Positions 14,512 through 37,754 of a DNA stretch of 64,000 nt are shown one piece after another. Made by a program: the position numbers and the translations under genes. The stretch spans positions 1-64,000 of the IMG/VR virus record IMGVR_UViG_3300010885_082162; one strand, 5' to 3'. Origin of the DNA: a virus. Taxonomy: Duplodnaviria > Caudoviricetes. The number at the start of each line of letters is the position of its first letter. Position 1 is the stretch's first letter. Below the pieces are notes generated by a model. It made no database searches. It saw only the letters and a list, made by a program, of their open reading frames with translations, and was not told the origin of the DNA.

Positions 14512-14870
14512 AAACAAATAAACTTCACGAGACAATCTCAACGCTAGTAACAGAACGCTTAATAAGGCGAAAAGGTGAGAAATTCAATACTTCCGTTTGT
14601 AGTGAAATCTATCAAGATATATTCTTTTCTTTGACAGAAATTTTCAAAGAAGCAAAAACGCCACTTTGTAATGAATCAGTTAATTTTCTAGCTCAGATGT
14701 ATTATGATTCTGTAACAATTAATGATAATCAGCAACTTGACCCGGCTATCTTTACTCAAAGAGCTAAACTAAATAATCTTGAAATAAGAGAATTGGCCCT
14801 TCTTGCAACTATGATGAACGGTACACCATTTGCCTCCCCATTTATTGGTGAGATAAAGAGACGCTCGTGA
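14508..14870 (+). CDS. Hypothetical protein
   Basis: 120 aa; 4-nt ATGA/GTGA overlaps on both sides. Confidence 0.7.
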   Translation: MKTNKLHETISTLVTERLIRRKGEKFNTSVCSEIYQDIFFSLTEIFKEAKTPLCNESVNFLAQMYYDSVTINDNQQLDPAIFTQRAKLNNLEIRELALLATMMNGTPFASPFIGEIKRRS

Positions 14871-22472: not shown

Positions 22473-22874
22473 ATGAATAGAAGATATCTGCCTACGCTAT
22501 CAGAGCTAATTGATAGACTCTCAATTCTTCAGCTAAAAGAAGTCTTTATTACTGAACATAAAAAAGAATATTCAGAAGAAATTAAAGACATTGTTCACGA
22601 TATACAAGAATGTTTAAACGATACAAATACTGTTTTATCTGCTGAAGATGTAAGAGCTATTGTTGTACTTTCACAAATGAATCTTCACATATGGCATAAT
22701 GAGTCAAACTATAGAAAAGGCATTAAAGACGGTAATGATCTAGCGCTTACTCATGGCCTTAATGGAATACGAAATACAGCCAAGAATAAGATTCAAGAGT
22801 CAGCAGCCGGAAGAAAAGATTATAAAATTGACTGTTTAGCAGCAGACTTTAAAGATTGGGAGGTAAGCTGGTGA
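22473..22874 (+). CDS. Small helical protein, DUF6165/DUF4254-like
   Basis: TLSELIDRLSILQLK and NLHIWHNES..R resemble this family (from memory). Confidence 0.55.
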   Translation: MNRRYLPTLSELIDRLSILQLKEVFITEHKKEYSEEIKDIVHDIQECLNDTNTVLSAEDVRAIVVLSQMNLHIWHNESNYRKGIKDGNDLALTHGLNGIRNTAKNKIQESAAGRKDYKIDCLAADFKDWEVSW

Positions 22875-23518
22875 TTATTACATTAAAAGATAAGATTTTA
22901 GAAAGACTAAACTTTTACTCCGATAGATTTTATCAAGAAGGATCTTGTGGAGCTAGACCGAATGGATGTCATTCTATAGAATGCGCTAATAGAAAAAGGC
23001 ATTATACTGACAAAAATCTATACCACTCATATGGTGAATTTTATGCAAGCCTAATAGCAAATTTACTTGGAAGTCAAAAAGAAGAAGACTTTTCAATAAT
23101 GGAATTAGGAACATATTTTGGCGGATCAATTGCTGCGTGGTGCGAATCATTACCACAAGCTTTTGTTTGCGGTATTGATCAAAATCTAGATAGATTATGG
23201 ATCGATCCAAACAACTATCCTAACTTAAAACTAATTTCAGGCAATCATGAAAATCTACTAACATATGAGTCACTAGGAAGTAGAAAATTTGATCTTATAA
23301 TCGACGATGGCTCACACATAGCCGATAATCAAATTAGTAACTTTTCTATACTCAAGAGCAAACTAAAACCAGACGGTGTCTATATTATTGAAGACATTTA
23401 TCCTGAAAACGTCTATCCTGAAAATTTTTTAAATCAATTTGAGCGAGTTGATTTCTCTAAAGACTCTGGTAGGGGAGACGATACACTGCTTGTTTACAAA
23501 CACACTGAGAAAAAATGA
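22871..23518 (+). CDS. Class I SAM-dependent methyltransferase
   Basis: IMELGTYFGGS, GIDQ, FDLIIDDGSH, LKPDGVYIIED. Start probably the GTG at 22871. Confidence 0.85.
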   Translation: MIITLKDKILERLNFYSDRFYQEGSCGARPNGCHSIECANRKRHYTDKNLYHSYGEFYASLIANLLGSQKEEDFSIMELGTYFGGSIAAWCESLPQAFVCGIDQNLDRLWIDPNNYPNLKLISGNHENLLTYESLGSRKFDLIIDDGSHIADNQISNFSILKSKLKPDGVYIIEDIYPENVYPENFLNQFERVDFSKDSGRGDDTLLVYKHTEKK

Positions 23519-24042
23519 ATAAAAGAGCATTAATATTAACATATGAAAGTTACCAAGACCATGAGGTCATCTATCCATACTATCGACTAACAGAAGATGA
23601 GTATGATGTTGAAATTATGTCTAACAAACAGGGAAGATTTTATGGCATATTAGGAACATATATGAACGGAACTCATCTACTAAGTGATCTGTCTGATGCA
23701 AGCAAAAGAGAAAACTTTTTTAAGTATGACTTACTTGTAATTCCGGGCGGAGTCAAAGCGCTAGAGTATCTTAGGCAAGAAAAAGATGTTCTCGACTTTA
23801 TTAATGAGTGGGATAAGAGAAAAAAAGTCATAGCTTGTATTTGTCATGGCGCTCAACTTTTAATTTCTTCAAAAGTTGTTGAGGGAAGACAGATCTCTGG
23901 GTACTATAGTATTAAGGATGATATTAACAACGCAGGCGCAATATATGTTGATGCGCCCTTTGTTGTCTCTGACAATATTGTCACATCTCCGCATTATAAG
24001 CACATGGGTCCTTGGATGAAAAAAGCGATCAGCATGGTGTGA
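23515..24042 (+). CDS. DJ-1/PfpI family protein
   Basis: QDHEVIYPYYRL, VIPGG, ICHG nucleophile elbow. Confidence 0.9.
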   Translation: MNKRALILTYESYQDHEVIYPYYRLTEDEYDVEIMSNKQGRFYGILGTYMNGTHLLSDLSDASKRENFFKYDLLVIPGGVKALEYLRQEKDVLDFINEWDKRKKVIACICHGAQLLISSKVVEGRQISGYYSIKDDINNAGAIYVDAPFVVSDNIVTSPHYKHMGPWMKKAISMV

Positions 24043-24043
24043 T

Positions 24044-24718
24044 ATGAGTTATAAGACGAATATTGTTAAGAAACCATGGGGCTATGAATATCTAGCATAT
24101 GAAAATGAAAATGTAGCTTTGTGGTTTCTTAGTATTTTAAGGGACCAAAAAACTTCAATGCACTGTCACCCAAATAAAACTACGGGCCTGATGGTAATTG
24201 ATGGAGATGCAGAAGTTTCTTTCTTATCTAATAAGTTAAGTCTATCTACAAAAGAAAAGACAATGATAAGAAAAGGACTTTTTCATTCTACACATGCAAT
24301 TGGTTCTAATTTATGCATATTTGAAATTGAAACACCTGTCAACAAGCACGACCTTGTTAGACTTGAAGACAAATATGGAAGAACAGGTCAACCTTATGAA
24401 GATGAATCAAATGAATTACCAAAAGCAAGTGAATGTATTTGGATTGACGAACCAGTTAAAGGATTGAGTAATTTCTATAATCTTGGTGGAAAAAAAATAG
24501 CTGTTCATCACATTGATAGCATGCAACATATGCAAAGTCTATTAGCACAAACTAACTCACACATTATGTTTTTAAGAGGAGGTCTCTTAACAGCATATGA
24601 CATTAATGTTGCAGGTCCCGGTGATATTGTGACCAAAGACGTCTTAGAAAAATTGTTAAAAGTTTTTTCTAATATGTCTAATAACACGATTGTTTTAACC
24701 CATGAAGGTAACTTTTAA
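24044..24718 (+). CDS. Cupin protein (type II mannose-6-phosphate isomerase C-terminal-like)
   Basis: KKPWG, TSMHCH, FHST, DLVRLEDKYGR. Confidence 0.8.
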   Translation: MSYKTNIVKKPWGYEYLAYENENVALWFLSILRDQKTSMHCHPNKTTGLMVIDGDAEVSFLSNKLSLSTKEKTMIRKGLFHSTHAIGSNLCIFEIETPVNKHDLVRLEDKYGRTGQPYEDESNELPKASECIWIDEPVKGLSNFYNLGGKKIAVHHIDSMQHMQSLLAQTNSHIMFLRGGLLTAYDINVAGPGDIVTKDVLEKLLKVFSNMSNNTIVLTHEGNF

Positions 24719-24720
24719 TT

Positions 24721-25107
24721 ATGAAAGATTTCCCACCAGGATTTGAAAATGAGTCAAACAATATTGCAATTGACTTTGATGGTGTAATACACGATTTTAG
24801 TAAAGGTTTTTATGATGGAACATGCTATGGAGAACCCTTACCTGGATCAATTGAGTCAATCAAGAAACTATCTAAAAAGTTTAATATTGTTATCTTTACC
24901 GCAAAAGCTAAACCAAGTAGGCCTCTTATTCAAGGAAAAACAGGAAAAGAGCATGTAGAAGACTGGCTTAAAAAGCATGAAATATTTTCTCTAGTAAAAG
25001 AAGTAACATCTGAAAAACCAAGAGCTTTTCTGTACATTGATGATAAAGGTTATAGATTTAGCAACTGGGATGATGCCTTGCTTTTTATAGAAAAAAATTA
25101 TGAGTGA
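24721..25107 (+). CDS. HAD-family phosphatase
   Basis: IAIDFDGVI, IFT, EKP...YIDDK. Confidence 0.8.
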   Translation: MKDFPPGFENESNNIAIDFDGVIHDFSKGFYDGTCYGEPLPGSIESIKKLSKKFNIVIFTAKAKPSRPLIQGKTGKEHVEDWLKKHEIFSLVKEVTSEKPRAFLYIDDKGYRFSNWDDALLFIEKNYE

Positions 25108-25933
25108 ATACAGTCTAAATGTATTTAAGCGAGCTTCGCTTTGCAGAAATTTTGAGAAAAAAGTTTTTGATCTTATAAAACTCAATACTTTTAAATTTCC
25201 AATTTATCTGTCTGCAGGCCAAGAATATATTGCAGCTTCAATTGCTGAATGTTTATCTTTGGCAAAGATTAATCCTAATATCTTTATTCAACACAGAGGA
25301 CATTCAACTTATCTATCTTTTGAAGCGCCCATAGAAGAATTAATTGATGAACTTTTAGGAAGAAAAACAGGTTGTTCAAATGGCATGGGTGGATCTGCTT
25401 CAATTCAGTCTAGACTTAAAAATATTTATGGTCACGATGGTCTGATGGGAAGTCAAGTCCCAATCGCAGTTGGGCACTGTTATTCAACAAAAAAACCTAC
25501 TATAGTTTTTATGGGTGATGCCTCTGCAGAAGAAGACTATGTTTTAGGTGCACTTGGCTGGGCGGCTACTAAAAAACTACCAATATTATTTGTTGTTGAG
25601 GATAACAATCTTTCAATTCTCACAGAGAAAAAAGTTAGAAGAAGTTGGGAGATGGATGATGTTGCTAAATCTTTTGGAATGAATGCGTTTAATATAAATG
25701 ATGATCCGCACGAGATTCAAGAAGCTTTGACATCTGTGTTTGCTAGCCCGTTGCTTATAAACGTCAATACGCATAGAAAATATTGGCATGCTGGTGCAGG
25801 TATTGATGACGAAACTATCTATGACCGCTATGAAAATGAAATGAAGACATTAGGCATCAAGGCACAAGAAATACATGAAAAAACACGTCTACATGTAGAG
25901 GAATTATGGCAAAGAACGTTAGAGAAACAATAA
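25100..25933 (+). CDS. TPP-dependent dehydrogenase E1 alpha-like subunit (short form)
   Basis: LSAGQE, HRGH, GCSNGMGGS, GDASAEE...EDNN TPP motif. Confidence 0.9.
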   Translation: MSEYSLNVFKRASLCRNFEKKVFDLIKLNTFKFPIYLSAGQEYIAASIAECLSLAKINPNIFIQHRGHSTYLSFEAPIEELIDELLGRKTGCSNGMGGSASIQSRLKNIYGHDGLMGSQVPIAVGHCYSTKKPTIVFMGDASAEEDYVLGALGWAATKKLPILFVVEDNNLSILTEKKVRRSWEMDDVAKSFGMNAFNINDDPHEIQEALTSVFASPLLINVNTHRKYWHAGAGIDDETIYDRYENEMKTLGIKAQEIHEKTRLHVEELWQRTLEKQ

Positions 25934-26817
25934 AGTCTCTTACTAAGAAACATCTAGAAAGCGGAAAAAGATGTTTTGGGCAGTGTCTAACAGCTGTTGG
26001 ATGGGTTGGCGGAACACTACCAGAGCTATATGAAGAAGACGGAATGGTTGAACTTTCGATGGCCGATGTCTCAGGAGGTTCTATTGTTACAGGAATTGCG
26101 CTTGCAGGTGAAAGACCAATTTACGTTGTTAGATATCAGGGTTTTCAATGGTATAACGCACCGTCAATTGTTAACTATGCTGCCAAGTCAAAAGAAATAT
26201 GGGGAATACCCTGCCCTATCTTTGTCAGGAGTATTGCGATGGAAGGTGGCGTAGGACCAGTTGCTGGCTCTTCACATCATTCACTATATGATAGAATGCC
26301 AGGTTTAAAAATTGCTGCACCCATGACCCCACTTGAGTATGAAAAAGTTTATGACTCTTTCATGAAAGATGACGTACCATATTACGTTTCAGAGCATAAA
26401 AAAAGTTATGATAATTGTGAAGAACTCGAAGATGAAATACATGAAAATTCCGACATAGTATTATTTCCAATATCAATTACAAGATTTTCAGCAAAAGATG
26501 CAAAACTAAAATTAGAAGAGCTAGGATACACTGTAAGTATCGTTCATCAATTATGGATAAAACCTTTTACTGGGAAGCAAAAATCGGTAGATGCATTAAA
26601 AAACTCAAAAGCAGGTTTAGTAATTGATGATGACTACGCTCAAGGAGTTGCTACAAATATCGCTCATCAGCTTATGTTATCATCTAAAAAAACAGTTGAT
26701 GTTTTAGGCTTAGAAGAAAGAACAGCGGGTTTTCATCCAAGCGTTGACTTATTTCCACCAAGCTCTGAAAACATAATCAATAAATGTCTAGAGTTACTAT
26801 CAACTAAATTAACATGA
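25906..26817 (+). CDS. TPP-dependent dehydrogenase E1 beta / transketolase C-terminal-like subunit
   Basis: IVNYAAK, P+FVR, MPGLKIAAPMTP, SEHK, WIKP. Adjacent to the alpha subunit. Confidence 0.88.
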   Translation: MAKNVRETIKSLTKKHLESGKRCFGQCLTAVGWVGGTLPELYEEDGMVELSMADVSGGSIVTGIALAGERPIYVVRYQGFQWYNAPSIVNYAAKSKEIWGIPCPIFVRSIAMEGGVGPVAGSSHHSLYDRMPGLKIAAPMTPLEYEKVYDSFMKDDVPYYVSEHKKSYDNCEELEDEIHENSDIVLFPISITRFSAKDAKLKLEELGYTVSIVHQLWIKPFTGKQKSVDALKNSKAGLVIDDDYAQGVATNIAHQLMLSSKKTVDVLGLEERTAGFHPSVDLFPPSSENIINKCLELLSTKLT

Positions 26818-27296
26818 TATTTTCTGATGTCAAAGAGTATGAAGCAAGTTATTACAGTGACTACAGAGGAGACTTGTGGACACTGTGGAAAGAGGATGAA
26901 ACATATCCATCTATTAAATTTAATCATGACAAAGTTTCAACATCAAGAAAGAATGTGTTAAGAGGCATTCACGGTGATTTTAAGTCAACTAAATTGGTAA
27001 CATGTTTGTTTGGAGAAATTTATTTTGTAGTTGTTGATAACCGTCCAGACTCACCTACATTTAAAAAGTGGGATTGGACTATGCTAAGTGATAAGAACAA
27101 GAAATCTATACTACTTCCACCTGGTTTCGGCAATGGATTTCTTGCAATGAGTAAACATTCTGTATTCCACTATAAATGGTCTTATGAGGGATCGTATCCT
27201 GATGTTGATGAGCAATTTACTATTAAATGGAATGATTCTACTATCGGAATTGACTGGCCGATTTTAAATCCAATTTTACAAAAAAGAGACAAGTGA
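26814..27296 (+). CDS. rmlC: dTDP-4-dehydrorhamnose 3,5-epimerase family
   Basis: DYRG, VLRGIH, KLVTCLFGEIYFVVVDNR..SPTF..W, PGFGNGF, IKWND..IGIDWP. Confidence 0.9.
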   Translation: MIFSDVKEYEASYYSDYRGDLWTLWKEDETYPSIKFNHDKVSTSRKNVLRGIHGDFKSTKLVTCLFGEIYFVVVDNRPDSPTFKKWDWTMLSDKNKKSILLPPGFGNGFLAMSKHSVFHYKWSYEGSYPDVDEQFTIKWNDSTIGIDWPILNPILQKRDK

Positions 27297-27300
27297 CATT

Positions 27301-28482
27301 ATGCAAAACTTTAAATGGCCGCTAATCAATGATAACGTTTCAGACAGCGATAAAAAAGCTTTAATAAAATTTCTTTCTGAGCCTGGTGTAAGACTAACCC
27401 AGGGAAAAAAGGTACAAGAGTTTGAAAAGAAATGGTCCGAGTGGCTCGGTGTTTCTTATAGCGTATTTGTTAACTCGGGTGCCTCCGCAAATTACATTAT
27501 GACTGCAATTTGCCGCGACGTAAAAGGAGTAGGCGAGATAATTGTACCTCCTCTTGGCTGGGTCTCTGATATTGCTGCCGTCGTAAATCTCGGCATGATC
27601 CCTGTATTTGTTGACATCTCAATGGAAAATTTAGCAATTACTGCTGAAAATATTGAAGAGGCAATAACAGAAAATACAAAAGCAATAGTTTTAGTTCATA
27701 CGCTAGGATTTAATGGCATAAATGATAAAATTATTGAAATTGCAAAAAAATACAATTTGATGTTGATTGAAGATTGCTGTGAGTCACATGGAGCAACCTT
27801 CAATGAAAGAAAAGTTGGAACGCTTGGAGATATATCAAATTTTTCATTCTACTTCGGTCATCATATGACTACAATTGAAGGCGGAATGATATGCACAAAT
27901 GATAAAGAACTTTATGATCTTGCTAAACTCTACAGATCACACGGTATGATTCGTGAGCTTGACGAAGAAACTAAAACAAAATACTCAAATGAAAATCCAT
28001 CTCTAAATCCTCTGTTCACTTTCGTAGTGCCTGGATTTAATATGAGGAGCACTGAAATCAATGCAGTAATTGGATTAGAACAGCTAAAACATTTAGACAG
28101 TGCAATTCAAAAAAGAACTAATAATCTTTTAAGCTGGCTTTCTAAGCTTGACTCTAAGCTATTCATTACAGAGTTTCACACATTAGGCAGCAGTAATTTC
28201 TCTCTACCTCTAATTTTGCGTAAACCAAACGAAGATGCTTTTAAAAAGATATGTGATATTCTTGATAGTGAAGGAATTGAATACAGAAAAGGTACAGCCG
28301 GCGGAGGTAATCAAGCACGTCAACCTTACTTAAAAAAGTTTATTCATAAAATTGTAGGAAATTTAAAAACAGTCAATCACGTACACGATTTTGGACTTTA
28401 CATTGGTAATCATTCTGACGTTAATGATGAAGATATTGAAAAAATTTGTCTTAAATTTTCTCAGGAGATTACTAATGTTTAA
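27301..28482 (+). CDS. PLP-dependent ColD-type (GDP-4-keto-6-deoxymannose) 3-dehydratase, DegT/DnrJ fold
   Basis: NSGASAN, EDCCESHGA, SFYFGHHMTTIEGG. His187 (27859-27861) occupies the Schiff-base Lys position, as His188 does in ColD. Confidence 0.85.
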   Translation: MQNFKWPLINDNVSDSDKKALIKFLSEPGVRLTQGKKVQEFEKKWSEWLGVSYSVFVNSGASANYIMTAICRDVKGVGEIIVPPLGWVSDIAAVVNLGMIPVFVDISMENLAITAENIEEAITENTKAIVLVHTLGFNGINDKIIEIAKKYNLMLIEDCCESHGATFNERKVGTLGDISNFSFYFGHHMTTIEGGMICTNDKELYDLAKLYRSHGMIRELDEETKTKYSNENPSLNPLFTFVVPGFNMRSTEINAVIGLEQLKHLDSAIQKRTNNLLSWLSKLDSKLFITEFHTLGSSNFSLPLILRKPNEDAFKKICDILDSEGIEYRKGTAGGGNQARQPYLKKFIHKIVGNLKTVNHVHDFGLYIGNHSDVNDEDIEKICLKFSQEITNV

Positions 28483-29449
28483 AAACAAGAAAGTATTAGT
28501 TACTGGTGGGAATGGGATGATTGGCAGGCATCTCATTGACCTTCTACAAAAGAGGGGAGCAAATATTAGAGTTGCCGACATTAGACAAGCCCCTGATGTA
28601 AAAGGCGTAGAATTTGTCAATGTTGACCTCAGAGACTTTAATTCATGTAAAAAAATATGTGACAATATTGACTACGTCTTTAATTTAGTTGGAATTAAAT
28701 GCTCGCCAAAAGTGTGTATTGAAAGACCTGCTGATATTATGGGCCCAATGCTTCAGTTTAATACAAACATGTTAGAAGCAGCAATGCAAGCAAATATAAA
28801 ATGGTACTTGTATACAAGCACAGTAGGTGTTTATGCACCAGCCGAAGTCTTTCATGAAGATGATGTTTGGTCTTCTCAGCCTTCTAAAAACGACTGGTTT
28901 GGCGGGTGGGCAAAAAGAATGGGTGAACTTCAGTGTCAAGCATATGAAAAACAATTCGGTGAAGGAAAATGCAGCATTGTGAGACCTGCTAATGTTTATG
29001 GTCCATATGATAACTTTGATCTTGAAAGCTCAATGGTCATACCATCATTAATTAGAAAAGCATTTTCAAATGGAAAGCTTTCTGTTTGGGGTGACGGATC
29101 AGCTGTAAGAGACTTTATTCATGCAAAAGATGTTGCAGAAGGTATGATCTTTGCAGTTGAAAATAAGATAACAGATCCTTTAAATTTAGGATCTGGGAGT
29201 GGAGTTACAATAAAAGAAGTTGCAGACTGTGTTGCTGAGATAGTTGGAGTTGATGTAGAGTGGGATCTATCTAAACCAACAGGTGATGCTAAGAGAATTT
29301 TTGATACTAAGCGTGCACAAAAATTAGGTTTTGCACCAAAGATAACAATTAGACAAGGCATAGAAGAAACTGTTAAGTGGTATGTGAAAAATATTCAAGA
29401 AGCGAATACAAGACTTGACACATTTAAGCTCTTAAAAGAAAAAGTTTAA
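28475..29449 (+). CDS. GDP-L-fucose-synthase-like extended SDR (atypical active site)
   Basis: LVTGGNGMIG, NVYGPYDNFD, VWGDGSAVRDFIH. GGWAK in place of YxxxK. Start 28475 with AGGAG upstream. Confidence 0.82.
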   Translation: MFKNKKVLVTGGNGMIGRHLIDLLQKRGANIRVADIRQAPDVKGVEFVNVDLRDFNSCKKICDNIDYVFNLVGIKCSPKVCIERPADIMGPMLQFNTNMLEAAMQANIKWYLYTSTVGVYAPAEVFHEDDVWSSQPSKNDWFGGWAKRMGELQCQAYEKQFGEGKCSIVRPANVYGPYDNFDLESSMVIPSLIRKAFSNGKLSVWGDGSAVRDFIHAKDVAEGMIFAVENKITDPLNLGSGSGVTIKEVADCVAEIVGVDVEWDLSKPTGDAKRIFDTKRAQKLGFAPKITIRQGIEETVKWYVKNIQEANTRLDTFKLLKEKV

Positions 29450-30025
29450 ATGAATAGAATTCTAGTCACAGGCGCGAGTTCAGGTCTAGGCAAATATTTG
29501 TCAAAAAAGTTTGAAGACGAAGGTCATTTTGTTCTAAAGCACAATGGAAAAAATCACTTTAATCTAATTAATTTAAACGACTTAAACAGACTAATTTGTC
29601 TTGCAAAAGAAAATAAAATTGATGTATTAATCAATAACGCAGCCATTACATGCCCAGGAAAGAAGCTACATGAGTATAGCCAGGACGAGATAGTTGATAT
29701 GACAAGTGTTAATTTGCTTGCCCCTATTCTTCTTACTCATGGTCTAGTTGATCAATTAAATTGTGTTATCAACATAAACTCAATGGTTGGTCTAGAAATA
29801 AAGCCAAAAAGAACGTTATATTCAGCTACGAAATGGGGACTAAGAGGATTCTCTCAAAGTTTTTCGTCTGAGAATGAAAGAATTCATATTCTTGACGTAT
29901 ATCCAACTAATATTAAGACAAGTCCTGAAAAAGAAAACGCGATGGATATAAACTTTGTTCTAGATGAAATCTATAATGCATTTTTAAATAAAGAGAAACG
30001 GCTGGTTTTAGATGGAAGAAAATAA
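29450..30025 (+). CDS. Short classical SDR oxidoreductase
   Basis: VTGASSGLG, LINNAA, NINS, YSATK. Confidence 0.88.
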   Translation: MNRILVTGASSGLGKYLSKKFEDEGHFVLKHNGKNHFNLINLNDLNRLICLAKENKIDVLINNAAITCPGKKLHEYSQDEIVDMTSVNLLAPILLTHGLVDQLNCVININSMVGLEIKPKRTLYSATKWGLRGFSQSFSSENERIHILDVYPTNIKTSPEKENAMDINFVLDEIYNAFLNKEKRLVLDGRK

Positions 30026-30977
30026 AAAGCTGATGCTAATTTGTGGTGCTACTGGCTTTATTGGTAGAAATTTACTTGACTTCTTTGTCAAGAAAGACAT
30101 CTATAAAATTAGAGCAACTCATTTTTCTAGAACCGCACCCAAAGGTTATGAAAATGTCGAATGGGTAAAGTGCGATCTAAAAGATCATAATTCTGTGAAG
30201 TCAATCATGAAAGGAGTTGATGTTGTTCTACAATTTGCAGCAACAACGTCGGGCGCAAAAGATATTATTGCTAAACCCTATATTCATGTAACTGACAATG
30301 CAATAATGAATTCTTTGTTGTTAAGAGAAGCCTTCGAACAGAGCGTAGAACATTTTGTATTTCCAAGCTGCACAATAATGTATCAGAAATCAGCCATCGC
30401 AATTTCTGAAGATGATTATAATCCATCAGATGAAATTTTACCTTTTTACTATGGCGCAGGTCATACGAAAGTTTACCTAGAAAAAATGTGCGAGTTCTAT
30501 TCAAGAATTGGGAAAACTAAGCATACTGTCATTAGACACTCAAATCTCTATGGATCGTATGATAAGTTTGACCTAGAGAAATCACACGTTTTTGGAGCTA
30601 CAGTAACAAAAGTCATGTCATCAAAAGATGATAAGATAATTGTGTGGGGTACAGGAGAAGAACAAAGAGACTTGCTTCATATTGATGACTTTTTAAGTTT
30701 TGTTGAGATTGCACTGCAAAAACAGGCTACACAATATGAGCTAGTAAATGTTGGTCTAGGAGAAGGAATTAAAATTAAAGACTTGGTTCGAAAGATAGTA
30801 AAAGCTTCAGGAAAAAAGCTACAGATTGAACACGACCTTTCCAAGCCTTCAGTACCAACATCGCTTTATTTAAATTGCAACAGAGCTAAAAATATCTTTG
30901 GATGGACACCGAAAGTATCGCTTGAAGAAGGTATAAAAAAGACGCTAGCTTGGTATAATCAAAATATCTTCTTTTAA
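30012..30977 (+). CDS. Second GDP-L-fucose-synthase-like extended SDR (atypical active site)
   Basis: ICGATGFIG, NLYGSYDKFD, SHV, VWGTGEEQRDLLH. AGHTK in place of YxxxK. Confidence 0.82.
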   Translation: MEENKKLMLICGATGFIGRNLLDFFVKKDIYKIRATHFSRTAPKGYENVEWVKCDLKDHNSVKSIMKGVDVVLQFAATTSGAKDIIAKPYIHVTDNAIMNSLLLREAFEQSVEHFVFPSCTIMYQKSAIAISEDDYNPSDEILPFYYGAGHTKVYLEKMCEFYSRIGKTKHTVIRHSNLYGSYDKFDLEKSHVFGATVTKVMSSKDDKIIVWGTGEEQRDLLHIDDFLSFVEIALQKQATQYELVNVGLGEGIKIKDLVRKIVKASGKKLQIEHDLSKPSVPTSLYLNCNRAKNIFGWTPKVSLEEGIKKTLAWYNQNIFF

Positions 30978-31084
30978 AAGACTACAACTTGCAAAATTAT
31001 TGATTATATATGCCTGTAGCTTAAGTCATCTTGATAAGCAAAATATTTCAAATGAAATCAGAGTAATAAATTAGTAAGAGGATT

Positions 31085-31840
31085 ATGTTAAAACAACAGA
31101 TTGATTTTTTTCATGAAAATGGCTTTCTAGTCGTAAATGATATCTTTACTAAAGACGATGCTGATCACTGTAATAGACTAATAAGAAGACATGCAAATAT
31201 TGACTTTGCTGCAATTGTTAATCCTGACCGTTATGAAGATTTAATAGCGCAAGACGAGAGACCAAAATCAAATATAACATTAGAAGAAATAGAAGAAACT
31301 TGCAACTATTTTTTATCAGCTATGAAAAATTTTAAGATTGTGTCTACATTAGAGAGTCTAACGGGTAAAGAAATTGTAGGCTTAAGTAGTCAATTTATCT
31401 TTAAAGAAGCATACTCTAGATACGCAAGTCAAGCGTGGAGTATTCACCAAGATGGTTGGTATCCTGGCGACAAACATGGTGATTATGTAACTGCAAACTG
31501 GTTTCTTAGAGATACAGATGTAAAAAATGGCACAATCTTTGTATATCCCGGTTCACATAAGCTGGGATTATTACATGCACAGCCTCAAAAAAGTTTTAGA
31601 GAGGATTATAATAAAAGTCCCGGTAGCAATTGCACTTTACCTGACGATTTTAAGATTGAAAAAGTCGATCTAGAGATTTCTAAATCATCAGTTGTATTTC
31701 TTCATGGTCATTGCGTGCATGGTTCTTATCCGAATACCTCAGAAAGATCGAGACCATGGCATTCCTTCTGCTACATTACAAAAGGATCAAATTTTGTCAT
31801 TGGTCAAAATGCTAAGAGAAGAGAAATTAACTTAAGATGA
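31085..31840 (+). CDS. PhyH-family Fe(II)/2-oxoglutarate dioxygenase
   Basis: HQD...NG.+.V.PGSH...VHGS..N.S..SR: facial triad and 2OG-binding Arg. Confidence 0.88.
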   Translation: MLKQQIDFFHENGFLVVNDIFTKDDADHCNRLIRRHANIDFAAIVNPDRYEDLIAQDERPKSNITLEEIEETCNYFLSAMKNFKIVSTLESLTGKEIVGLSSQFIFKEAYSRYASQAWSIHQDGWYPGDKHGDYVTANWFLRDTDVKNGTIFVYPGSHKLGLLHAQPQKSFREDYNKSPGSNCTLPDDFKIEKVDLEISKSSVVFLHGHCVHGSYPNTSERSRPWHSFCYITKGSNFVIGQNAKRREINLR

Positions 31841-31863
31841 CTTTTGCACATACTTTTGCACAT
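31840..31863 (+). repeat. 12-bp perfect tandem duplication ACTTTTGCACAT x2
   Basis: Read directly at 31840-31851 and 31852-31863; each copy contains TTGCAC. Confidence 0.9.
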
Positions 31864-31884
31864 TTTCCTTTAACTGAATAAAAT
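31856..31884 (+). promoter_or_regulatory. Putative sigma70-type promoter for the radical SAM genes
   Basis: TTGCAC (31856-31861), 17-nt spacer, TAAAAT (31879-31884). Confidence 0.55.
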
Positions 31885-31918
31885 TAGCTATAAGCCGATT
31901 TCTAAAGGGAAGATAACT

Positions 31919-33355
31919 ATGTTGTTTAAGAGTAGTGATGAAAGACTTCAAAAGTCTAAGCTAACAGTGCTAGCTAAGAAATATGAACACAGTGCGTTCA
32001 TGTATACTCATTATCCGCATAAAAGATTTTGGAGTCAAAATAAAAATGACGCTAGCTTTAAGAGTTCTCTCATAACCCTCAACAAGCAAAACAATCTAAC
32101 AGCAATGTTGTATGTGCATATGCCGTATTGCCAACAGCTTTGTTATTTCTGCACGTGTCACGTATCTATTACTAATGATTATCAAAAAGTAAAAGACTAC
32201 ATGGAAATTTTATTCAAAGAAATTGATCATTTTTCTAATTTCCTCACTGATAATAAAATTAAATTAGACGTTAAAGAAATTCACCTCGGCGGAGGATCTC
32301 CAACTTTTATAGAGGAAGCAGAGTTTGATATACTTTGTCAAAAGCTTGAAAAGATTGTGGACATAAAACTGTTGAGAGAATTTGCAATAGAAATTGATCC
32401 TCGAAGAGTTGATGTTCAAAAAATGAGATATTATCACAGCAAAGGAATTAATAGGATTTCTTTTGGAATTCAAGACTTTGATTCAAAAGTCCAAAATGCT
32501 GTCAATAGAATCCAGCCAGTTGAGCTAATTGATGACCTGCTTACACCTGAGATAAGAGACTTATTTAAGAATGGAATCAATTTTGATATTATCTGCGGTT
32601 TACCACATCAAACTGTTGACTCAATTAAACTAACAGCAAAAGAATGCGTTCGACTTTCTCCTGAAAGAATTTGCTTAAATTATCTTCATTACTCTCCTGT
32701 TTTTGCACCTCAGCAGAAATTCATGATAGATGGCAAAGATGGTAGACCAACTAAGCTTCCTGATTTCTTTGAAAGAAAAGAACTCTTTAGTGCTACTCAA
32801 GATGTGCTGGTTGATGGAGGATATGTTCGAACTGGTTATGACCATTTTGCTAAACCATTTGATGATGTTGCAAAAGCAGTTGATCAAAAAAAGGTCTACT
32901 GGAATTCGATGGGTGTTACACCCGGTGAGTATAATAACATAATTGGTCTCGGAATTAGTAGTGAGTCTACTGTTGGAAATTCTTATTTTCAGAACTTCTA
33001 TGATATGTTAGACTACACTAGCTCAGTACTGTCAAACTGCTTTCCTATATATAGAGAATATGAATTAACAGACGACGATCTTGTGAGAAAAGACGTAATA
33101 CAGCAAATAAGAAATTATTTTGAAATTAATTTTTCATCCATTGAAGAAGCACATAAAATTAATTTCCAAAGCTATTTTAGCGATGAAATGACAAAAATTA
33201 AAACTTTTGAAGAAGATGAGATTTTAGTCATTGAAAAAAATCAAATAAGACTCACTGAGACGGGTAGACAATTTACTAATATCGTGTGCAGAGTTTTTGA
33301 TAAATATTATTCTGATGACTTGAGAAAAAAAGATTTAGGGATTAGAGTAGATTGA
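31919..33355 (+). CDS. HemN-like radical SAM protein (coproporphyrinogen III oxidase family / possible class C methyltransferase)
   Basis: YTHYP, LYVHMPYCQQLCYFC (CxxxCxxC), HLGGGSP, EIDPR, RISFGIQD, GYDHFA. HemN HRNFQGY is replaced by YWNSMGV. Confidence 0.88.
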   Translation: MLFKSSDERLQKSKLTVLAKKYEHSAFMYTHYPHKRFWSQNKNDASFKSSLITLNKQNNLTAMLYVHMPYCQQLCYFCTCHVSITNDYQKVKDYMEILFKEIDHFSNFLTDNKIKLDVKEIHLGGGSPTFIEEAEFDILCQKLEKIVDIKLLREFAIEIDPRRVDVQKMRYYHSKGINRISFGIQDFDSKVQNAVNRIQPVELIDDLLTPEIRDLFKNGINFDIICGLPHQTVDSIKLTAKECVRLSPERICLNYLHYSPVFAPQQKFMIDGKDGRPTKLPDFFERKELFSATQDVLVDGGYVRTGYDHFAKPFDDVAKAVDQKKVYWNSMGVTPGEYNNIIGLGISSESTVGNSYFQNFYDMLDYTSSVLSNCFPIYREYELTDDDLVRKDVIQQIRNYFEINFSSIEEAHKINFQSYFSDEMTKIKTFEEDEILVIEKNQIRLTETGRQFTNIVCRVFDKYYSDDLRKKDLGIRVD

Positions 33356-33373
33356 TTAGCTGAAGGATTTAAC

Positions 33374-35242
33374 GTGCTAAAAAAGTTTAAACAGCTTGAA
33401 ATTATCAATATACCCCTAAAAAATCTTGAAACTAAAAAAGCTATTTACAGCAAGTTAGAGACAACTTTTAAAAATGGATGTCGAAAAATTTTATTGGTAA
33501 ATTCACTACCTTTTAACACCGAGAACTTTGAACTGAGACAAGCAAGAAACTCTAGGTATTATGCATGGCCACCTTACGGAATAGCTGTGCTTTGTAAAGT
33601 CTTAAGAGACAGAGGGTATGAAGTTAAACTTATAGATTTTAATCTTGAAATCTTGGACCTAATCAACAGAAGAAGTGACATTCAAGATAATGAATCTGCT
33701 AGAGAGCTTGCTGAGAATCATTGGAAGTCTAGTTTTAAACAGTCTGTAAATAATTTTCAACCTGACTTAGTAGGTCTAACATGCATGTTTACCATGGGAC
33801 ATGAAATGTTGATAAGAACTGCTAATTTTGCAAAAGAAGAATTTCAGATTCCTACTATCGTTGGCGGAGTACATGTAACTAATGCAACTAAATTTGTGCT
33901 CGGTGAAAGCAAGAATATTGACTTTGCCGGCTTATATGAATCCGATGTTAGTTTTTGCGATTTTATTGATGTTATAAACAAAAAACTTGATTTAAATAAA
34001 TTAAATCAAATAGCAACCATTATTAATGGTGAGTATATCGCTATAGACTCTAGCGCGACGCCAACTGCAGATGATCTAAACATAATACCCGATTATGATT
34101 CACTAGATCTCAGCTTGTATAGCAACTTAGGTGAAGTCGGATCTTATAGATCATGGCTGCCCAAACAGATAAAGTCGACTTCAATTTTGTCAAACAGAGG
34201 ATGTCGAGCGAGATGCTCATTCTGCAGCGTAAGAAATTTTAATGGTTTCGGTGTTAGAGCAAGAAGCATAGAGTCAGTTATTGATGAGCTAACAAAAGTA
34301 AAAGAAAAATATGGAATCGGTCATGTTACGTGGATAGATGATGATCTGTTCTATGATCAAGAAAGAGCCTTGCAGCTTTTTAATGAAATGGCTGATAGAA
34401 ACTTAAACATAAAATGGTGTGCATCAAATGGAATAATTGCCTCTGCAGCTGCAAAAACACCAGCTCTAATAGAGACAGCTGCACGTTCTGGTTGCATTGG
34501 AATGACTTTTGGATTAGAATCCGGAAGCGATGCTATATTAAAAGCTGTACATAAACCATCCAAAGTTCAGCACTATTACATAGTAGGAGATCTTCTAAAG
34601 AAGTACCCACAAATTTTTACTAGAGGATTTTTAATAATTGGTTTTCCGAATGAGACCTTGAGCCAAATGATGCAGACTGTCAAGATGGCGCAAGATGTTG
34701 GACTTGACTGGTATGGCATACAGCTTTTATCTCCACTGCCTTCAACTGAAATTTATGAAGAAATGGTTTCATTGGGTCTTATTGATGATATCAATTTGAA
34801 AAAGAATAAAGAGGGTGACGGTTCTAAATTGTTCGTTGTTAGACAGGCAGAGAAACAAAGAGAACAAGAGCAGCTTCAAAAAAATAAAGTTGAAAAATTT
34901 GTTAATCTTTTTGAGGGCGACTGGAATGTGATACCAACCAGAGAACAGCTTCACGACATTTGGCTGCTAGTTGATTATTGGATTAATTACGCACCAATTT
35001 TGGAGCTAAAAGACAGAGATAGACTTGTTAAGAAAAAAATGATACTAACTGATATTTGTGATAGAATGACAAAAGATAATCCTCTAGCTAGCTTATTTCT
35101 AAGCGTTGTTGACCAAAAACTTGGAAATGTTGAAGAATCGAAAAAGAGAAATACTATCGCAAAATCTTATCTAAATTCTTCTGAATACTGGAAATCGAGA
35201 TTTGATGCACTTAATCTTAATGGTCTAATGGAGTTAACTTGA
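33374..35242 (+). CDS. Cobalamin-binding radical SAM protein (class B-type architecture)
   Basis: PPYGIAVL, PDLVGLT, IVGGVHVT (B12 domain); RGCRARCSFC, IDDD, FGLESGS, IIGFPNET. GTG start. Confidence 0.9.
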   Translation: MLKKFKQLEIINIPLKNLETKKAIYSKLETTFKNGCRKILLVNSLPFNTENFELRQARNSRYYAWPPYGIAVLCKVLRDRGYEVKLIDFNLEILDLINRRSDIQDNESARELAENHWKSSFKQSVNNFQPDLVGLTCMFTMGHEMLIRTANFAKEEFQIPTIVGGVHVTNATKFVLGESKNIDFAGLYESDVSFCDFIDVINKKLDLNKLNQIATIINGEYIAIDSSATPTADDLNIIPDYDSLDLSLYSNLGEVGSYRSWLPKQIKSTSILSNRGCRARCSFCSVRNFNGFGVRARSIESVIDELTKVKEKYGIGHVTWIDDDLFYDQERALQLFNEMADRNLNIKWCASNGIIASAAAKTPALIETAARSGCIGMTFGLESGSDAILKAVHKPSKVQHYYIVGDLLKKYPQIFTRGFLIIGFPNETLSQMMQTVKMAQDVGLDWYGIQLLSPLPSTEIYEEMVSLGLIDDINLKKNKEGDGSKLFVVRQAEKQREQEQLQKNKVEKFVNLFEGDWNVIPTREQLHDIWLLVDYWINYAPILELKDRDRLVKKKMILTDICDRMTKDNPLASLFLSVVDQKLGNVEESKKRNTIAKSYLNSSEYWKSRFDALNLNGLMELT

Positions 35243-36252
35243 AAGCAATTATTACAGGTATAACTGGCATGGTAGGCTCACACTTAGCAGACTTTTTGCT
35301 TGAGAACACGGACTGGGAAATTCACGGCATGATGAGATGGTTCGAACCAACAAAAAATATTGAGCATCTCTCACGAAGAATAAATGATAAAGATCGAATA
35401 GAACTACACAATGCTGACCTTAATGATTTTGCAAGCCTGATGTCACTTATAAAAAAAGTCAAACCAGACTATGTGTTTCATTTAGCAGCTCAAAGTTATC
35501 CAAAGACTAGTTTTGACTCTCCACTTGAGACTTTGCAAACCAACATAATTGGAACATGCGCACTGCTAGAGGCAATTAGACTCTCAGAAATTGACTTAAA
35601 AAAAATTACTGTACATGTCTGCGCAAGCTCCGAAGTCTTTGGAAGAGTTTCAAAAGATAAACTTCCAATTCACGAAGATGTTAACTTTCATCCAGCTTCA
35701 CCGTACGCAATTTCCAAAGTTGGCACTGATTTAATTGGAAGATTTTATGCTGAAGCATATGGAATGAGAGTCATGACGACTAGAATGTTTACACATACGG
35801 GACCTCGCAGAGGTGACGTTTTTGCTGAATCTTCATTTGCTAAGCAAATTGCGCTAATAGAAGCCGGTAAAATACCGCCTATTTTAAAAGTAGGTAATCT
35901 AGATTCTCTTAGAACATGGGCAGATGTTCGTGATGCAGTTAGAGCATATTACATGCTTGTGACTAATAATCCTGTCGCAGGTGAGTACTACAACATTGGC
36001 GGCTCTTATACGTGTTCTGTAAGAGACATGTTAAATTTTCTTCTTAAAAATTCTACAGTTAAAAACATACAAGTTGTCGTAGATCCGGATAGGCTTAGGC
36101 CTATTGATGCTGATCTTCAGATACCTGACACAAATAAGTTTAAGAGCCACACCGGTTGGCAGCCTGAGATTAGTTTTGAAAAAACAATGTTAGAATTATT
36201 ACAATATTGGCGTAATGAAGTAAGAAAAGATACTGCCGAAATTGTAAGATAA
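35239..36252 (+). CDS. gmd: GDP-mannose 4,6-dehydratase-like
   Basis: ITGITGMVGSHLA, HLAAQS, ASSEVFG, PASPYAISK, VGNLDSLRTWADVRD, RLRPID. TTG start overlapping the upstream stop. Confidence 0.8.
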   Translation: MKAIITGITGMVGSHLADFLLENTDWEIHGMMRWFEPTKNIEHLSRRINDKDRIELHNADLNDFASLMSLIKKVKPDYVFHLAAQSYPKTSFDSPLETLQTNIIGTCALLEAIRLSEIDLKKITVHVCASSEVFGRVSKDKLPIHEDVNFHPASPYAISKVGTDLIGRFYAEAYGMRVMTTRMFTHTGPRRGDVFAESSFAKQIALIEAGKIPPILKVGNLDSLRTWADVRDAVRAYYMLVTNNPVAGEYYNIGGSYTCSVRDMLNFLLKNSTVKNIQVVVDPDRLRPIDADLQIPDTNKFKSHTGWQPEISFEKTMLELLQYWRNEVRKDTAEIVR

Positions 36253-36255
36253 ACT

Positions 36256-37029
36256 ATGACAAAAAAGATATTAGTAATTGGTGAATCTTGTAAAGATGTT
36301 TTCATCTACGGTAGTGTTGAAAGATTTGCTCCCGAGGCACCTGCGCCCGTATTTTTAGAATTATCTAGTAATGAAAATCCAGGCATGGCTGCCAATGTTC
36401 AAAACAACATAATGTCTTTAAGCGTTTCATGCGACATTATGACTAATTCAAACTGGGAAACAATTAAAAAAACAAGATATATGGACGATAGAACAAATCA
36501 TATGTTTGTTAGAGTCGATACCAATGATAAAAGTTACTCAAAATTTATTCTTAACAGTGAAACGCTTGACAAGATTTTAGGTTATGACGTTGTTGTCATA
36601 TCTGACTATGACAAAGGCTTTATAACAAGCGATGACATCTTGAGAATTTCATCTTCACATCAAAATGTTCTCTTAGATACTAAAAAAGTCTTAGGAGATT
36701 GGTGTAGAAATGTGAAATACATAAAAATCAATAGAGACGAATATGAAAAATCTAAAGATGCAATTGATGAAAATATTTCTAGCAAACTAATCATAACTCA
36801 AGGTAAAGAAGGCTGTGTTTTTCAAAATAAGCTTTTAAAGGTAAAAAAAGTAAGCATAAGAGATGTCTCAGGAGCCGGTGATACTTTTATGGCAGCGCTA
36901 GCAGTTAAGATTGCAAATGAAGTAAAAATTGAAGGTGCAATAAAGTTTGCAAATGAATGCGCAACAGTCGTCGTACAAAAAAGAGGAGTATCAGTCATCA
37001 ATGATAGTATGGACAAACGGCTGCTTTGA
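36256..37029 (+). CDS. Heptose-7-phosphate kinase (HldA/RfaE domain I, PfkB family)
   Basis: LVIGESCKD...RFAPEAPAP, GMAANV, KKTR, SDYDKG, DVSGAGDTF, VVQKRG. Confidence 0.88.
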   Translation: MTKKILVIGESCKDVFIYGSVERFAPEAPAPVFLELSSNENPGMAANVQNNIMSLSVSCDIMTNSNWETIKKTRYMDDRTNHMFVRVDTNDKSYSKFILNSETLDKILGYDVVVISDYDKGFITSDDILRISSSHQNVLLDTKKVLGDWCRNVKYIKINRDEYEKSKDAIDENISSKLIITQGKEGCVFQNKLLKVKKVSIRDVSGAGDTFMAALAVKIANEVKIEGAIKFANECATVVVQKRGVSVINDSMDKRLL

Positions 37030-37396
37030 TTGCATTCATGCAGGTCACGTTGAGATACTTGACTACGCCAGAAAAAAAGGTCATAAACTGATTGTTGGTA
37101 TCGACTCTGACGATAGAGTGAAAAAATCAAAAGGTGCCAACAGACCTATTCATAGTCAAGATAGCAGAAAAAGAGTGCTTGAGTCGATTAAACACGTAGA
37201 TGAAGTTGTAATTTTTTCTTCTGACGAAGAGCTTGTAGAATGTATTAAAAAATCTGGCGCATCTCTCATTGTCGTTGGATCAGACTACATAGATAAAAAA
37301 GTAATAGGCTCTGAATTAGTAGAAGTTAATTTTTTTAAGAGAATACCGGAATTTTCAAGCACAAAAATAATAGAAAAAGGAGGCCTCAATGAGTAG
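37001..37396 (+). CDS. Heptose-1-phosphate nucleotidyltransferase (HldC/RfaE domain II)
   Basis: WTNGCFDCIHAGH (HxGH), VGIDSD, KGANRPI, SSTKII. Start 37001 with GAGGAG upstream. Confidence 0.88.
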   Translation: MIVWTNGCFDCIHAGHVEILDYARKKGHKLIVGIDSDDRVKKSKGANRPIHSQDSRKRVLESIKHVDEVVIFSSDEELVECIKKSGASLIVVGSDYIDKKVIGSELVEVNFFKRIPEFSSTKIIEKGGLNE

Positions 37397-37754
37397 TTTT
37401 AAAAAATTTCTTCCTGAAGAACACCCAAAAGGATGGGGGAAAGAGTTGTGGATCACAAACACAGACAAATATTGTGGAAAAATATTGTGTTTTAATAAGG
37501 GCAAGAGATGTAGTTGGCATTATCATGAAATAAAAGATGAAGTTTTTTATCTTTTAAACGGTTTAATGGAAATAACAGTTTCTGAGTCAAATGATAGAGA
37601 AAAAGCAGAAACATTCTTTCTAAAAAAAGGAGAAACTTTTCACGTAAAGACCGGGCTGAGACATCAAATGCTAGCAATTGAAGACTCAGAATTACTTGAA
37701 GTTTCAACACGACATTTTGAAGATGATAGTATTAGAATTATTAAGGGTGACTAA
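37389..37754 (+). CDS. Cupin-fold sugar isomerase-like protein
   Basis: KGWGKELWI, SWHYHEIKDE, RHQM, LEVST. Confidence 0.8.
   Translation: MSSFKKFLPEEHPKGWGKELWITNTDKYCGKILCFNKGKRCSWHYHEIKDEVFYLLNGLMEITVSESNDREKAETFFLKKGETFHVKTGLRHQMLAIEDSELLEVSTRHFEDDSIRIIKGD

Follow-up and report, generated by a model that had tools for sequence, protein, structure and literature searches.

A marine phage operon that may join an E1-type thiamine diphosphate enzyme to a 3,6-dideoxy-heptose route

INTRODUCTION

Sugar-branching enzymes that depend on thiamine diphosphate (ThDP) fall into three classes: single-chain YerE-like enzymes of lipopolysaccharide (LPS) pathways, E1 alpha/beta "alphaKADH2" pairs of actinomycete antibiotic pathways, and split transketolases (PMC12247030, PMC9306805, PMC4753412). 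YerE adds a two-carbon (C2) unit to a 3,6-dideoxy-4-keto sugar, and alphaKADH2 pairs put a pyruvate-derived C2 branch on keto sugars in aldgamycin, paulomycin, avilamycin, and kibdelomycin, with KbDH-alpha/beta tested in vitro (PMC12247030, PMC4753412, PMC9306805). In Campylobacter jejuni, GDP-3,6-dideoxy-heptoses arise through a 4,6-dehydratase, an epimerase, a reductase, and a C3-dehydratase of the ColD kind; the C3-dehydratases of this species share 62-67% identity with ColD (PMC10440746). Here, we analyze an operon of a large marine phage in which an E1 alpha/beta pair (25100-26817) stands among genes for heptose modification. The window, which is the whole stretch of DNA that was analyzed, comprises the first 64 kb of the 72,038-bp IMG/VR virus record IMGVR_UViG_3300010885_082162 (CheckV completeness, 22%).

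The gene set in question is phage-borne and spans 23515-37754, about 14 kb. The operon within it may well be part of a pathway to a heavily modified heptose, with the E1 pair C2-branching a 3,6-dideoxy-4-keto-heptose at C4, a proposal for which we consider the chances even. We regard C2 branching as the best reading because the operon repeats the yersiniose logic, on a heptose and with an E1-type enzyme. An initial annotation of this DNA had already pointed to the yersiniose-like succession of dehydratase, 3-dehydratase, and ThDP enzyme, and this logic was upheld: the E1 pair lies within a nucleotide-sugar operon beside a ColD-type 3-dehydratase. No description of the cassette was found in the literature searched. 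The initial remark that such a pathway had not been described from a phage therefore stands for that literature, although the cassette itself is common in phage contigs, with the E1 family present on 47 IMG/VR contigs. On the best reading, what is new here is E1-type ThDP sugar branching joined to a 3,6-dideoxy-heptose route, in phages and marine bacteria.

RESULTS AND DISCUSSION

Organization of the operon

All open reading frames (ORFs) listed in the initial annotation were found where it had placed them, on the + strand. Genes for E1 alpha, E1 beta, an RmlC-fold protein, a pyridoxal phosphate-type enzyme with a catalytic-position His, and three short-chain dehydrogenases/reductases (SDRs) are all present. 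From E1 alpha to the third SDR, successive genes overlap by 28, 4, -4, 8, 0, and 14 nucleotides (nt), where a negative value denotes a gap. Since the junctions overlap or abut, we consider these genes a single translationally coupled operon. The operon DNA gave no blastn match among 50,697 phage records. The gene set reads as follows (aa, amino acids; PMP, pyridoxamine phosphate; SAM, S-adenosylmethionine; NDP, nucleoside diphosphate):

23515..24042, + strand: DJ-1/PfpI-family protein, a constant partner of the E1 pair (PF01965, 120 bits; NCBIfam PfpI subfamily, 122.6 bits)
24044..24718, + strand: phosphomannose isomerase (PMI)-like metal cupin, 224 aa, a constant partner of the E1 pair (PF01050, 26.6 bits)
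24721..25107, + strand: minimal HAD-type phosphatase, 128 aa, candidate GmhB analogue (motifs DFDGV, FTAK, and YIDD in the translation; weak NT5C match)
25100..25933, + strand: ThDP-binding E1 alpha-like subunit of the short "D-type" subfamily, 277 aa (PF00676, 72 bits)
25906..26817, + strand: E1 beta-like subunit, 303 aa, with Asp54 (PF02779, 40.6 bits; PF02780, 23.5 bits, under the cut-off)
26814..27296, + strand: RmlC-fold epimerase of the GDP-4-keto-heptose type (PF00908, 131 bits; PDB 8DB5 and others, 153-167 bits)
27301..28482, + strand: ColD-type PMP-dependent C3-dehydratase, DegT fold, 393 aa (PF01041, 246 bits; PDB 2GMS, 203 bits)
28475..29449, + strand: extended SDR resembling GDP-fucose synthase, with GGWAK replacing YxxxK (Fcl, 116 bits)
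29450..30025, + strand: short classical SDR, 191 aa, candidate branch ketoreductase (PF00106, 82 bits)
30012..30977, + strand: second Fcl-like extended SDR, with AGHTK replacing YxxxK (alignment and motif)
31085..31840, + strand: PhyH-family Fe(II)/2-oxoglutarate dioxygenase, putative tailoring enzyme (PF05721, 70.7 bits)
31919..33355, + strand: HemN-like radical SAM enzyme, putative tailoring enzyme (TIGR00538, 351 bits)
33374..35242, + strand: B12-binding radical SAM enzyme, probably a methyltransferase (PF02310 and PF04055; best NCBIfam matches, B12 radical SAM methyltransferases)
35239..36252, + strand: NDP-heptose 4,6-dehydratase, DmhA/WcbK-like, not Gmd (PDB 7US5, 379 bits)
36256..37029, + strand: HldE domain-I-like heptose-7-phosphate kinase, PfkB family (TIGR02198 rfaE_dom_I, 137 bits; cut-off, 345)
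36947..37396, + strand: HldE domain-II-like heptose-1-phosphate nucleotidyltransferase (TIGR02199 rfaE_dom_II, 118 bits; cut-off, 181.5)
37389..37754, + strand: small cupin, 121 aa (PF07883, 33 bits)

The E1 pair forms a distinct clade without E2 or E3

The two E1 subunits are separate proteins encoded by genes that overlap by 28 nt, with PF00676 on alpha and PF02779 plus a weak PF02780 match on beta. This E1_dh/Transket_pyr content sets the pair apart from the single-chain architecture of the acetohydroxyacid synthase (AHAS)/decarboxylase superfamily to which YerE-like enzymes belong; a partial TPP_enzyme_C match covers the ThDP motif only. A split transketolase was also considered on subunit sizes and rejected, as alpha matches E1_dh and the E1 alpha of pyruvate dehydrogenase (PDH), not Transketolase_N.

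The initial annotation had held that the pair is not a PDH, and the scores bear this out. E1 alpha reaches 110.7 bits against the PDH_E1_alph_y equivalog (cut-off, 393.85), and E1 beta reaches 45.7 bits against E1 beta equivalog models (cut-off, 321). In a maximum-likelihood tree of E1 alpha (73 rows), the phage protein groups with its relatives in a single clade on a long stem, with a Shimodaira-Hasegawa-like approximate likelihood ratio test value (SH-aLRT) of 100. Four genuine E1 alphas with adjacent E2/E3 genes fall outside it, namely Novosphingobium pdhA, E. faecalis E1, Acinetobacter acoA, and an acetoin-type E1 of Aminobacter. A phylogeny against genuine PDH and acetoin E1s had been proposed at the outset as a test of the idea, and the phage protein does not cluster with genuine PDH. 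On sequence grounds, the pair is assigned to a deep, uncharacterized clade, here termed D-type. When E1 alpha was searched against phage records by tblastn, only genuine aco/pdh genes (23-27% identity) in seeming bacterial fragments were recovered, and plasmid matches to E1 were genuine E1s or other loci.

In agreement with the initial annotation, domain searches of the 72-kb record revealed no E2 catalytic (PF00198), lipoyl (PF00364), or E3 dimerization (PF02852) domain. Likewise, no E2 or lipoyl domain was found in five related cassette-bearing phage records and no E3 domain in four; two of these related records are 100% complete (186 kb, and 173 kb with terminal repeats).

E1 alpha is short (277 aa, versus 314-365 aa in other E1 alphas). 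Its GD...(27)...N ThDP/Mg motif is intact, and an invariant His230 occupies the catalytic His position of E1 alpha. At position 54 of E1 beta, where ThDP enzymes normally carry a cofactor-activating Glu, Asp is found in 134 of 134 homologues. This Asp54 lies opposite Glu59 of the G. stearothermophilus E1 beta (PDB 1W85 chain B/3DUF), the residue that activates ThDP via N1', and the surrounding motif reads ELSMAD where the canonical one is DTPLAE. A natural Asp-for-Glu ThDP site is of enzymological interest by itself.

Dehydratase and epimerase point to a heptose substrate

The ORF at 35239-36252 is present as initially annotated and falls in the Gmd Pfam family, yet it scores only 199 bits against the gmd equivalog (NCBIfam cut-off, 415). 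It reaches 379 bits to the C. jejuni GDP-D-glycero-D-manno-heptose 4,6-dehydratase (PDB 7US5), versus 165 bits to E. coli Gmd, so that the family assignment holds and the identification as a true Gmd does not. Similarly, the protein initially called RmlC retains the RmlC fold and loses the plain label, as it scores 153-167 bits to the C. jejuni GDP-4-keto-heptose 3,5-/3-epimerases, versus 93 bits to dTDP RmlC. Directly after the dehydratase gene follow HldE-like kinase and nucleotidyltransferase genes, both scoring under their equivalog cut-offs; cellular relatives activate heptose with a GHMP kinase and a fusion of nucleoside triphosphate (NTP)-transferase and HAD domains instead of HldE-like genes. 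A heptose-type dehydratase and epimerase, followed by HldE-like genes, indicate that the substrate is a heptose and not GDP-mannose. Any product is accordingly predicted from the sequence to be heptose-based, and it would have nine carbons if C2-branched.

A ColD-type 3-dehydratase and three SDRs

Residues 5-373 of the PMP enzyme align with residues 5-376 of E. coli ColD (PDB 2GMS) at 203 bits, without an Fe-S insert. The Fe-S type CDP-hexose 3-dehydrase (E1 dehydrase) scores 164 bits and, at 437 aa, is 44 residues longer than the phage protein (393 aa). The phage sequence FGHHMTTIEGG matches SHHIATMEGG of ColD, which places a His opposite ColD His188, the residue marked by the H188N and H188K mutant structures. 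This alignment confirms the initial observation of a His at the position of the Schiff-base Lys and identifies the enzyme as ColD-type. The His is kept in 49 of 49 DegT homologues beside E1 pairs (first 54 loci).

The first SDR starts at ATG 28475, which has a Shine-Dalgarno sequence upstream, and not at TTG 28391. In its alignment with Fcl, a Gly stands opposite the catalytic Tyr (GGWAK), and this is conserved in 52 homologues. In the third SDR, the Tyr of YxxxK is likewise gone (AGHTK), as it is across 44 homologues. Between these two Fcl-like proteins lies the 191-aa SDR, the only one of the three with a canonical S-YxxxK site: its TGxxxGxG, NNAG-like, and S...YxxxK motifs are intact and are conserved in 24 homologues.

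Proposed pathway

The gene content suggests the following scheme. Three enzymes would share the activation of a heptose phosphate, namely an HldE-like kinase (36256), a minimal HAD phosphatase (24721), and an HldE-like nucleotidyltransferase (36947). The DmhA-like enzyme (35239) would then yield NDP-6-deoxy-4-keto-heptose, from which the ColD-type enzyme (27301) would strip the 3-OH to give NDP-3,6-dideoxy-4-keto-heptose, and the RmlC-fold enzyme (26814) would epimerize beside the keto group. Next, the E1 alpha/beta ThDP enzyme (25100-26817) would decarboxylate pyruvate and place the C2 unit on the C4 carbonyl, giving a tertiary alcohol with an acetyl branch, which the short classical SDR (29450) may reduce to a 1-hydroxyethyl branch. 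Further tailoring could follow through the PhyH dioxygenase and both radical SAM enzymes, and flanking glycosyltransferases would install the product on a glycan. In this scheme, we infer the order of the steps, the nucleotide carrier, and the C2 transfer, along with any roles of the DJ-1/PfpI protein, the cupin, and the Tyr-less SDRs.

An erwiniose-like product, that is, a heptose with C7 methylation and a branch, was considered and set aside, as the long chain of erwiniose, like that of caryophyllose, is supplied by the 2-oxo acid donor when a YerE-type enzyme modifies a CDP-hexose (Steitz et al.).

The genes for the PhyH, HemN-like, and B12 radical SAM proteins (31085-35242) separate the SDR genes from that of the dehydratase. 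Members of these families recur beside E1 pairs in SAR11 (locus L067) and in other genomes.

Comparison with described systems

The closest described systems in architecture and gene context are the alphaKADH2 pairs (AviB1/AviB2, Pau11/Pau12, AlmDI/DII, and KbDH-alpha/beta). Like these, the phage pair is a two-subunit E1 without E2/E3 in a dehydratase-bearing nucleotide-sugar cluster, with pyruvate as a plausible C2 donor. However, it occurs in surface-glycan loci of phages and of Gram-negative or uncultured marine bacteria, whereas the alphaKADH2 pairs belong to antibiotic clusters, and its predicted scaffold is a heptose rather than a 6-deoxyhexose or pentose. The phage pair also differs in an alpha subunit cut to about 277 aa, in the Asp that replaces the activating Glu in beta, and in its constant DJ-1 and cupin partners.

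With the GDP-3,6-dideoxy-heptose pathway of C. jejuni HS:5/HS:11 (PMC10440746), the phage locus shares a heptose 4,6-dehydratase, a ColD-like C3-dehydratase, and an RmlC-fold epimerase, each a strong match to a solved C. jejuni or E. coli enzyme. Beyond these, the phage has the E1 ThDP pair, the DJ-1 and cupin proteins, two radical SAM enzymes, and a dioxygenase. Neither of its Fcl-like SDRs has the Tyr of the canonical triad that marks the NADPH-dependent C4-reductase, and the phage activation genes are HldE-like instead of HddA (GHMP kinase)/HddC. In contrast to the GDP-colitose pathway (Gmd-ColD-ColC), the phage has no true GDP-mannose 4,6-dehydratase.

The YerE/YerF pathway to yersiniose A (also ErwE and MyGE) offers the same succession of 4,6-dehydratase, 3-dehydratase, ThDP carboligation on a 3,6-dideoxy-4-keto sugar, and ketoreduction. 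There, YerE is a single-chain AHAS-like enzyme with a CDP-hexose substrate and the 3-dehydratase is of the Fe-S E1/E3 type, in contrast to the E1 alpha/beta pair and ColD-type enzyme of the phage. Finally, the hypervariable host-recognition islands of pelagimyophages and cyanomyophages (PMC7029224) similarly hold glycosyltransferases, rfaE-like genes, and radical SAM cassettes beside tail and baseplate genes. These islands are described in general terms, and the E1 pair, the 3-dehydratase, and a heptose-modification logic are not reported there.

Distribution and conserved neighborhood of the E1 pair

The E1 family is very abundant in marine metagenomes. In species-representative genomes, 223 stretches encode a relative, of which the best 80 were kept. 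These best 80 of 223 come mostly from Pelagibacteraceae, with further members from SAR116, marine Gamma- and Betaproteobacteria, Nitrospira, Omnitrophota, and other groups; no actinomycete loci were among them. One of the Pelagibacteraceae sequences is a complete chromosome, that of the cultured strain Ca. Pelagibacter sp. Uisw_130, which bears the cassette near 946-967 kb (NZ_CP159814.1). Three cassette-bearing phage records encode gp23, which marks those phages as T4-like. By tblastn, a structural ORF of the present record (44513-46096, 527 aa) matched nothing in the phage collection, and searches of four related cassette-bearing phage records and five cellular genomes were equally negative. 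As this ORF was not found in the gp23-positive records, the cassette occurs in more than one phage lineage.

To count neighbors, all ORFs of 134 phage and cellular loci, 50 of them on IMG/VR phage contigs, were clustered without recourse to annotation. E1 beta was found in 128/134 loci, the DJ-1/PfpI protein in 99/134, the PMI-like cupin in 98/134, and the DegT-fold enzyme in 92/134, followed by the Fcl-like SDRs (79/134), the DmhA-like dehydratase (67/134), an RmlD-like SDR (65/134), and a GHMP kinase (56/134). A 506-aa B12 radical SAM family is present in 53/134 loci and a second B12 radical SAM family in 17/134. The RmlC-fold protein (48/134), the short SDR (46/134), PhyH (41/134), the NTP-transferase+HAD fusion (27/134), and SIS/GmhA (21/134) are less frequent, while the minimal HAD phosphatase (35/134) and the 121-aa small cupin (15/134) occur mostly in viral loci.

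A subset of 82 loci has full 10-kb flanks (34 viral, 48 cellular). Within it, a DmhA-like or ColD-like gene is present in 77 loci, comprising all 34 viral and 43 of the 48 cellular ones, and DJ-1/PfpI is present in 34/34 viral loci. A heptose-activation marker accompanies 44 of the 48 cellular loci (GHMP kinase, 43/48; NTP-transferase+HAD fusion, 22/48; SIS/GmhA, 16/48). These full-flank counts indicate that the E1 pair is a fixed part of heptose-modification loci in cells and phages.

Both constant partners are well conserved. The Cys-His "ICHG" motif of the DJ-1/PfpI protein is kept in 103 homologues, and residues H40, H42, H81, E94, and E96 of the PMI-like cupin are invariant in 28. An AlphaFold model of the cupin, with a predicted local distance difference test score (pLDDT) of 92, gave Foldseek matches to generic metal cupins only.

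Azospirillum lipoferum 4B carries on plasmid AZO_p6 (L139, 36695-55435) a canonical E1 alpha and a "transketolase C-terminal domain" beta without E2. This pair adjoins a DegT gene, an NAD(P) oxidoreductase, a HAD-IIIA hydrolase, and a GT41 glycosyltransferase. As a cultured Gram-negative, the plasmid's host might serve as a tractable model for E1 pairs tied to sugar genes in organisms other than actinomycetes.

Observations against C2 branching and alternative explanations

Several observations weigh against C2 branching of a dideoxyheptose by the D-type pair. Its most constant partners, the DJ-1/PfpI protein and the PMI-like cupin, have no role in any described branching pathway, and in 14 of the 48 full-flank cellular loci a ColD-type gene is missing within 10 kb. 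The invariant Asp replaces the ThDP-activating Glu, so the chemistry of the pair may differ, and both Fcl-like SDRs lack the catalytic Tyr. There is also a mismatch (35239-37396) between the split HldE-like activation genes and a dehydratase, epimerase, and 3-dehydratase that resemble enzymes of GDP-alpha-heptose. HldE in E. coli carries out ADP-beta-heptose chemistry.

In addition, close cellular relatives hold a second, canonical E1 pair that adjoins the DmhA-like gene in the same island as the D-type pair (loci L059:380-2376, L058:372-2370, and L065:374-2376; also L123, L130, and L055:6522-8591, the pair being fused in L055). The E1 beta of this second pair keeps the usual TPLSE Glu; the window holds the D-type pair only. 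The canonical pair could be the real brancher in those relatives. Two ThDP E1 systems can thus coexist in one island, and the role of the D-type pair may lie outside classic branching.

The alternative that survives best is that the product, as in C. jejuni, carries no branch and is a 3,6-dideoxy- or 6-deoxy-heptose, with the D-type E1, DJ-1/PfpI protein, and cupin forming a separate module; we consider this possible, if unlikely. The module might decarboxylate a 2-oxo acid for a non-carbohydrate substituent, extend a chain in a transketolase- or DXS-like reaction, or cleave a C-C bond. It would account for DJ-1, the cupin, and E1 alpha/beta being the most constant contiguous block (98-99/134 loci; 34/34 full-flank viral), for the invariant Asp-for-Glu change, and for the second canonical pair beside the dehydratase in close relatives. 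Dehydratase, C3-dehydratase, and epimerase also suffice for a dideoxyheptose keto intermediate (PMC10440746). However, an unbranched product needs a C4-reductase, and no canonical one is evident, as neither Fcl-like SDR has the catalytic Tyr. Moreover, none of the genes was recognized as belonging to some other acceptor or donor pathway, and the E1-type enzymes that the literature has so far tied to sugar loci are all C2 branchers (PMC12247030).

A broader proposal, which we put forward tentatively and hold to be rather doubtful, is that D-type E1, DJ-1/PfpI, and cupin constitute a new ThDP sugar-modifying module with chemistry beyond antibiotic-type acetyl branching. It would make an undescribed class of higher-carbon surface sugars in SAR11, other abundant marine bacteria, and their phages, which the phages would copy so as to alter the surface of the host or to modify their own virions.

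The initial annotation started from GDP-mannose, with Gmd and ColD giving GDP-4-keto-3,6-dideoxymannose, the E1 pair branching it to a yersiniose- or eurekanate-like hexose derivative, and colitose as a side product. The Gmd Pfam family of the dehydratase, ColD as the best solved match of the PMP enzyme, and the Fcl/ColC-like character of the SDRs all fit such a scheme. Nevertheless, we consider it improbable. The dehydratase lies under the gmd cut-off and scores higher to the heptose enzyme than to Gmd (379 versus 165 bits), the epimerase is heptose-type, and neither ColC-like SDR has the catalytic Tyr. The phage carries genes for a heptose kinase and nucleotidyltransferase, while no mannose-1-phosphate guanylyltransferase was found in the profile matches of the window genes, and the cellular counterparts carry GmhA, HddA-like, and HddC-GmhB-like genes. 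A hexose start is therefore unsupported. Colitose is also without support, since no mannose-1-phosphate guanylyltransferase was found and the dehydratase is nearer the heptose enzyme.

That the pair serves pyruvate or acetoin catabolism as an auxiliary metabolic gene, placed in the sugar island by chance, agrees with automatic annotations that name homologues pyruvate or acetoin dehydrogenase E1 and with hosts that would provide E2/E3, but it is very improbable given the translational coupling within a sugar operon, the constant sugar neighborhood in 134 loci across phyla and phages, the separate E1 clade, scores far under the equivalog cut-offs, and a beta C-terminal domain, the part that binds E2 in genuine E1s, that falls under its Pfam cut-off.

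Implications of C2 branching

If C2 branching of the heptose is true, SAR11, the most abundant marine heterotrophs, and several large marine phage lineages would share a route to an undescribed branched, multiply tailored heptose-derived sugar. E1-type ThDP sugar branching would then reach beyond actinomycete antibiotics to Gram-negative surface glycans and viruses. The glycan target may be either the host envelope or the virion, and the pathway would provide a testable handle on SAR11 cell-surface chemistry and on its rewriting by phages through receptor masking, superinfection exclusion, or virion glycosylation.

Genomic setting of the operon

The operon lies in a sugar island of about 30 kb (12598-42546) with glycosyltransferase and sugar-modification genes on the + strand throughout. 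On one side, the island is flanked by PhoH/PIN, helicase, and ClpP genes, and on the other by gp25-like and baseplate-wedge-like genes and big unknown ORFs. The scanned ORFs of the island yielded no recognizable family of Wzx/Wzy, ABC exporter, or initiating transferase. Upstream of the island, on the - strand, 5103-6479 encodes a PhoH with a fused N-terminal PIN domain (PhoH2 type) and 9108-9710 a ClpP-family protease. Within the island and upstream of the operon, neighboring GT2, GT11 (fucosyltransferase family), and GT6 genes lie at 14867-17021; they are found too in a 273-kb relative (L002).

The ORF at 22473-22874 encodes a 133-aa protein with no Pfam or PDB match, for which an Atlas search gave phage hypothetical proteins only. 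It shows 69-82% identity across 40 loci, 38 of them viral, a conservation that exceeds that of the adjoining enzymes. As it is missing from almost all cellular loci, the ORF is probably one that phages conserve at the edge of the island, and not a member of the pathway.

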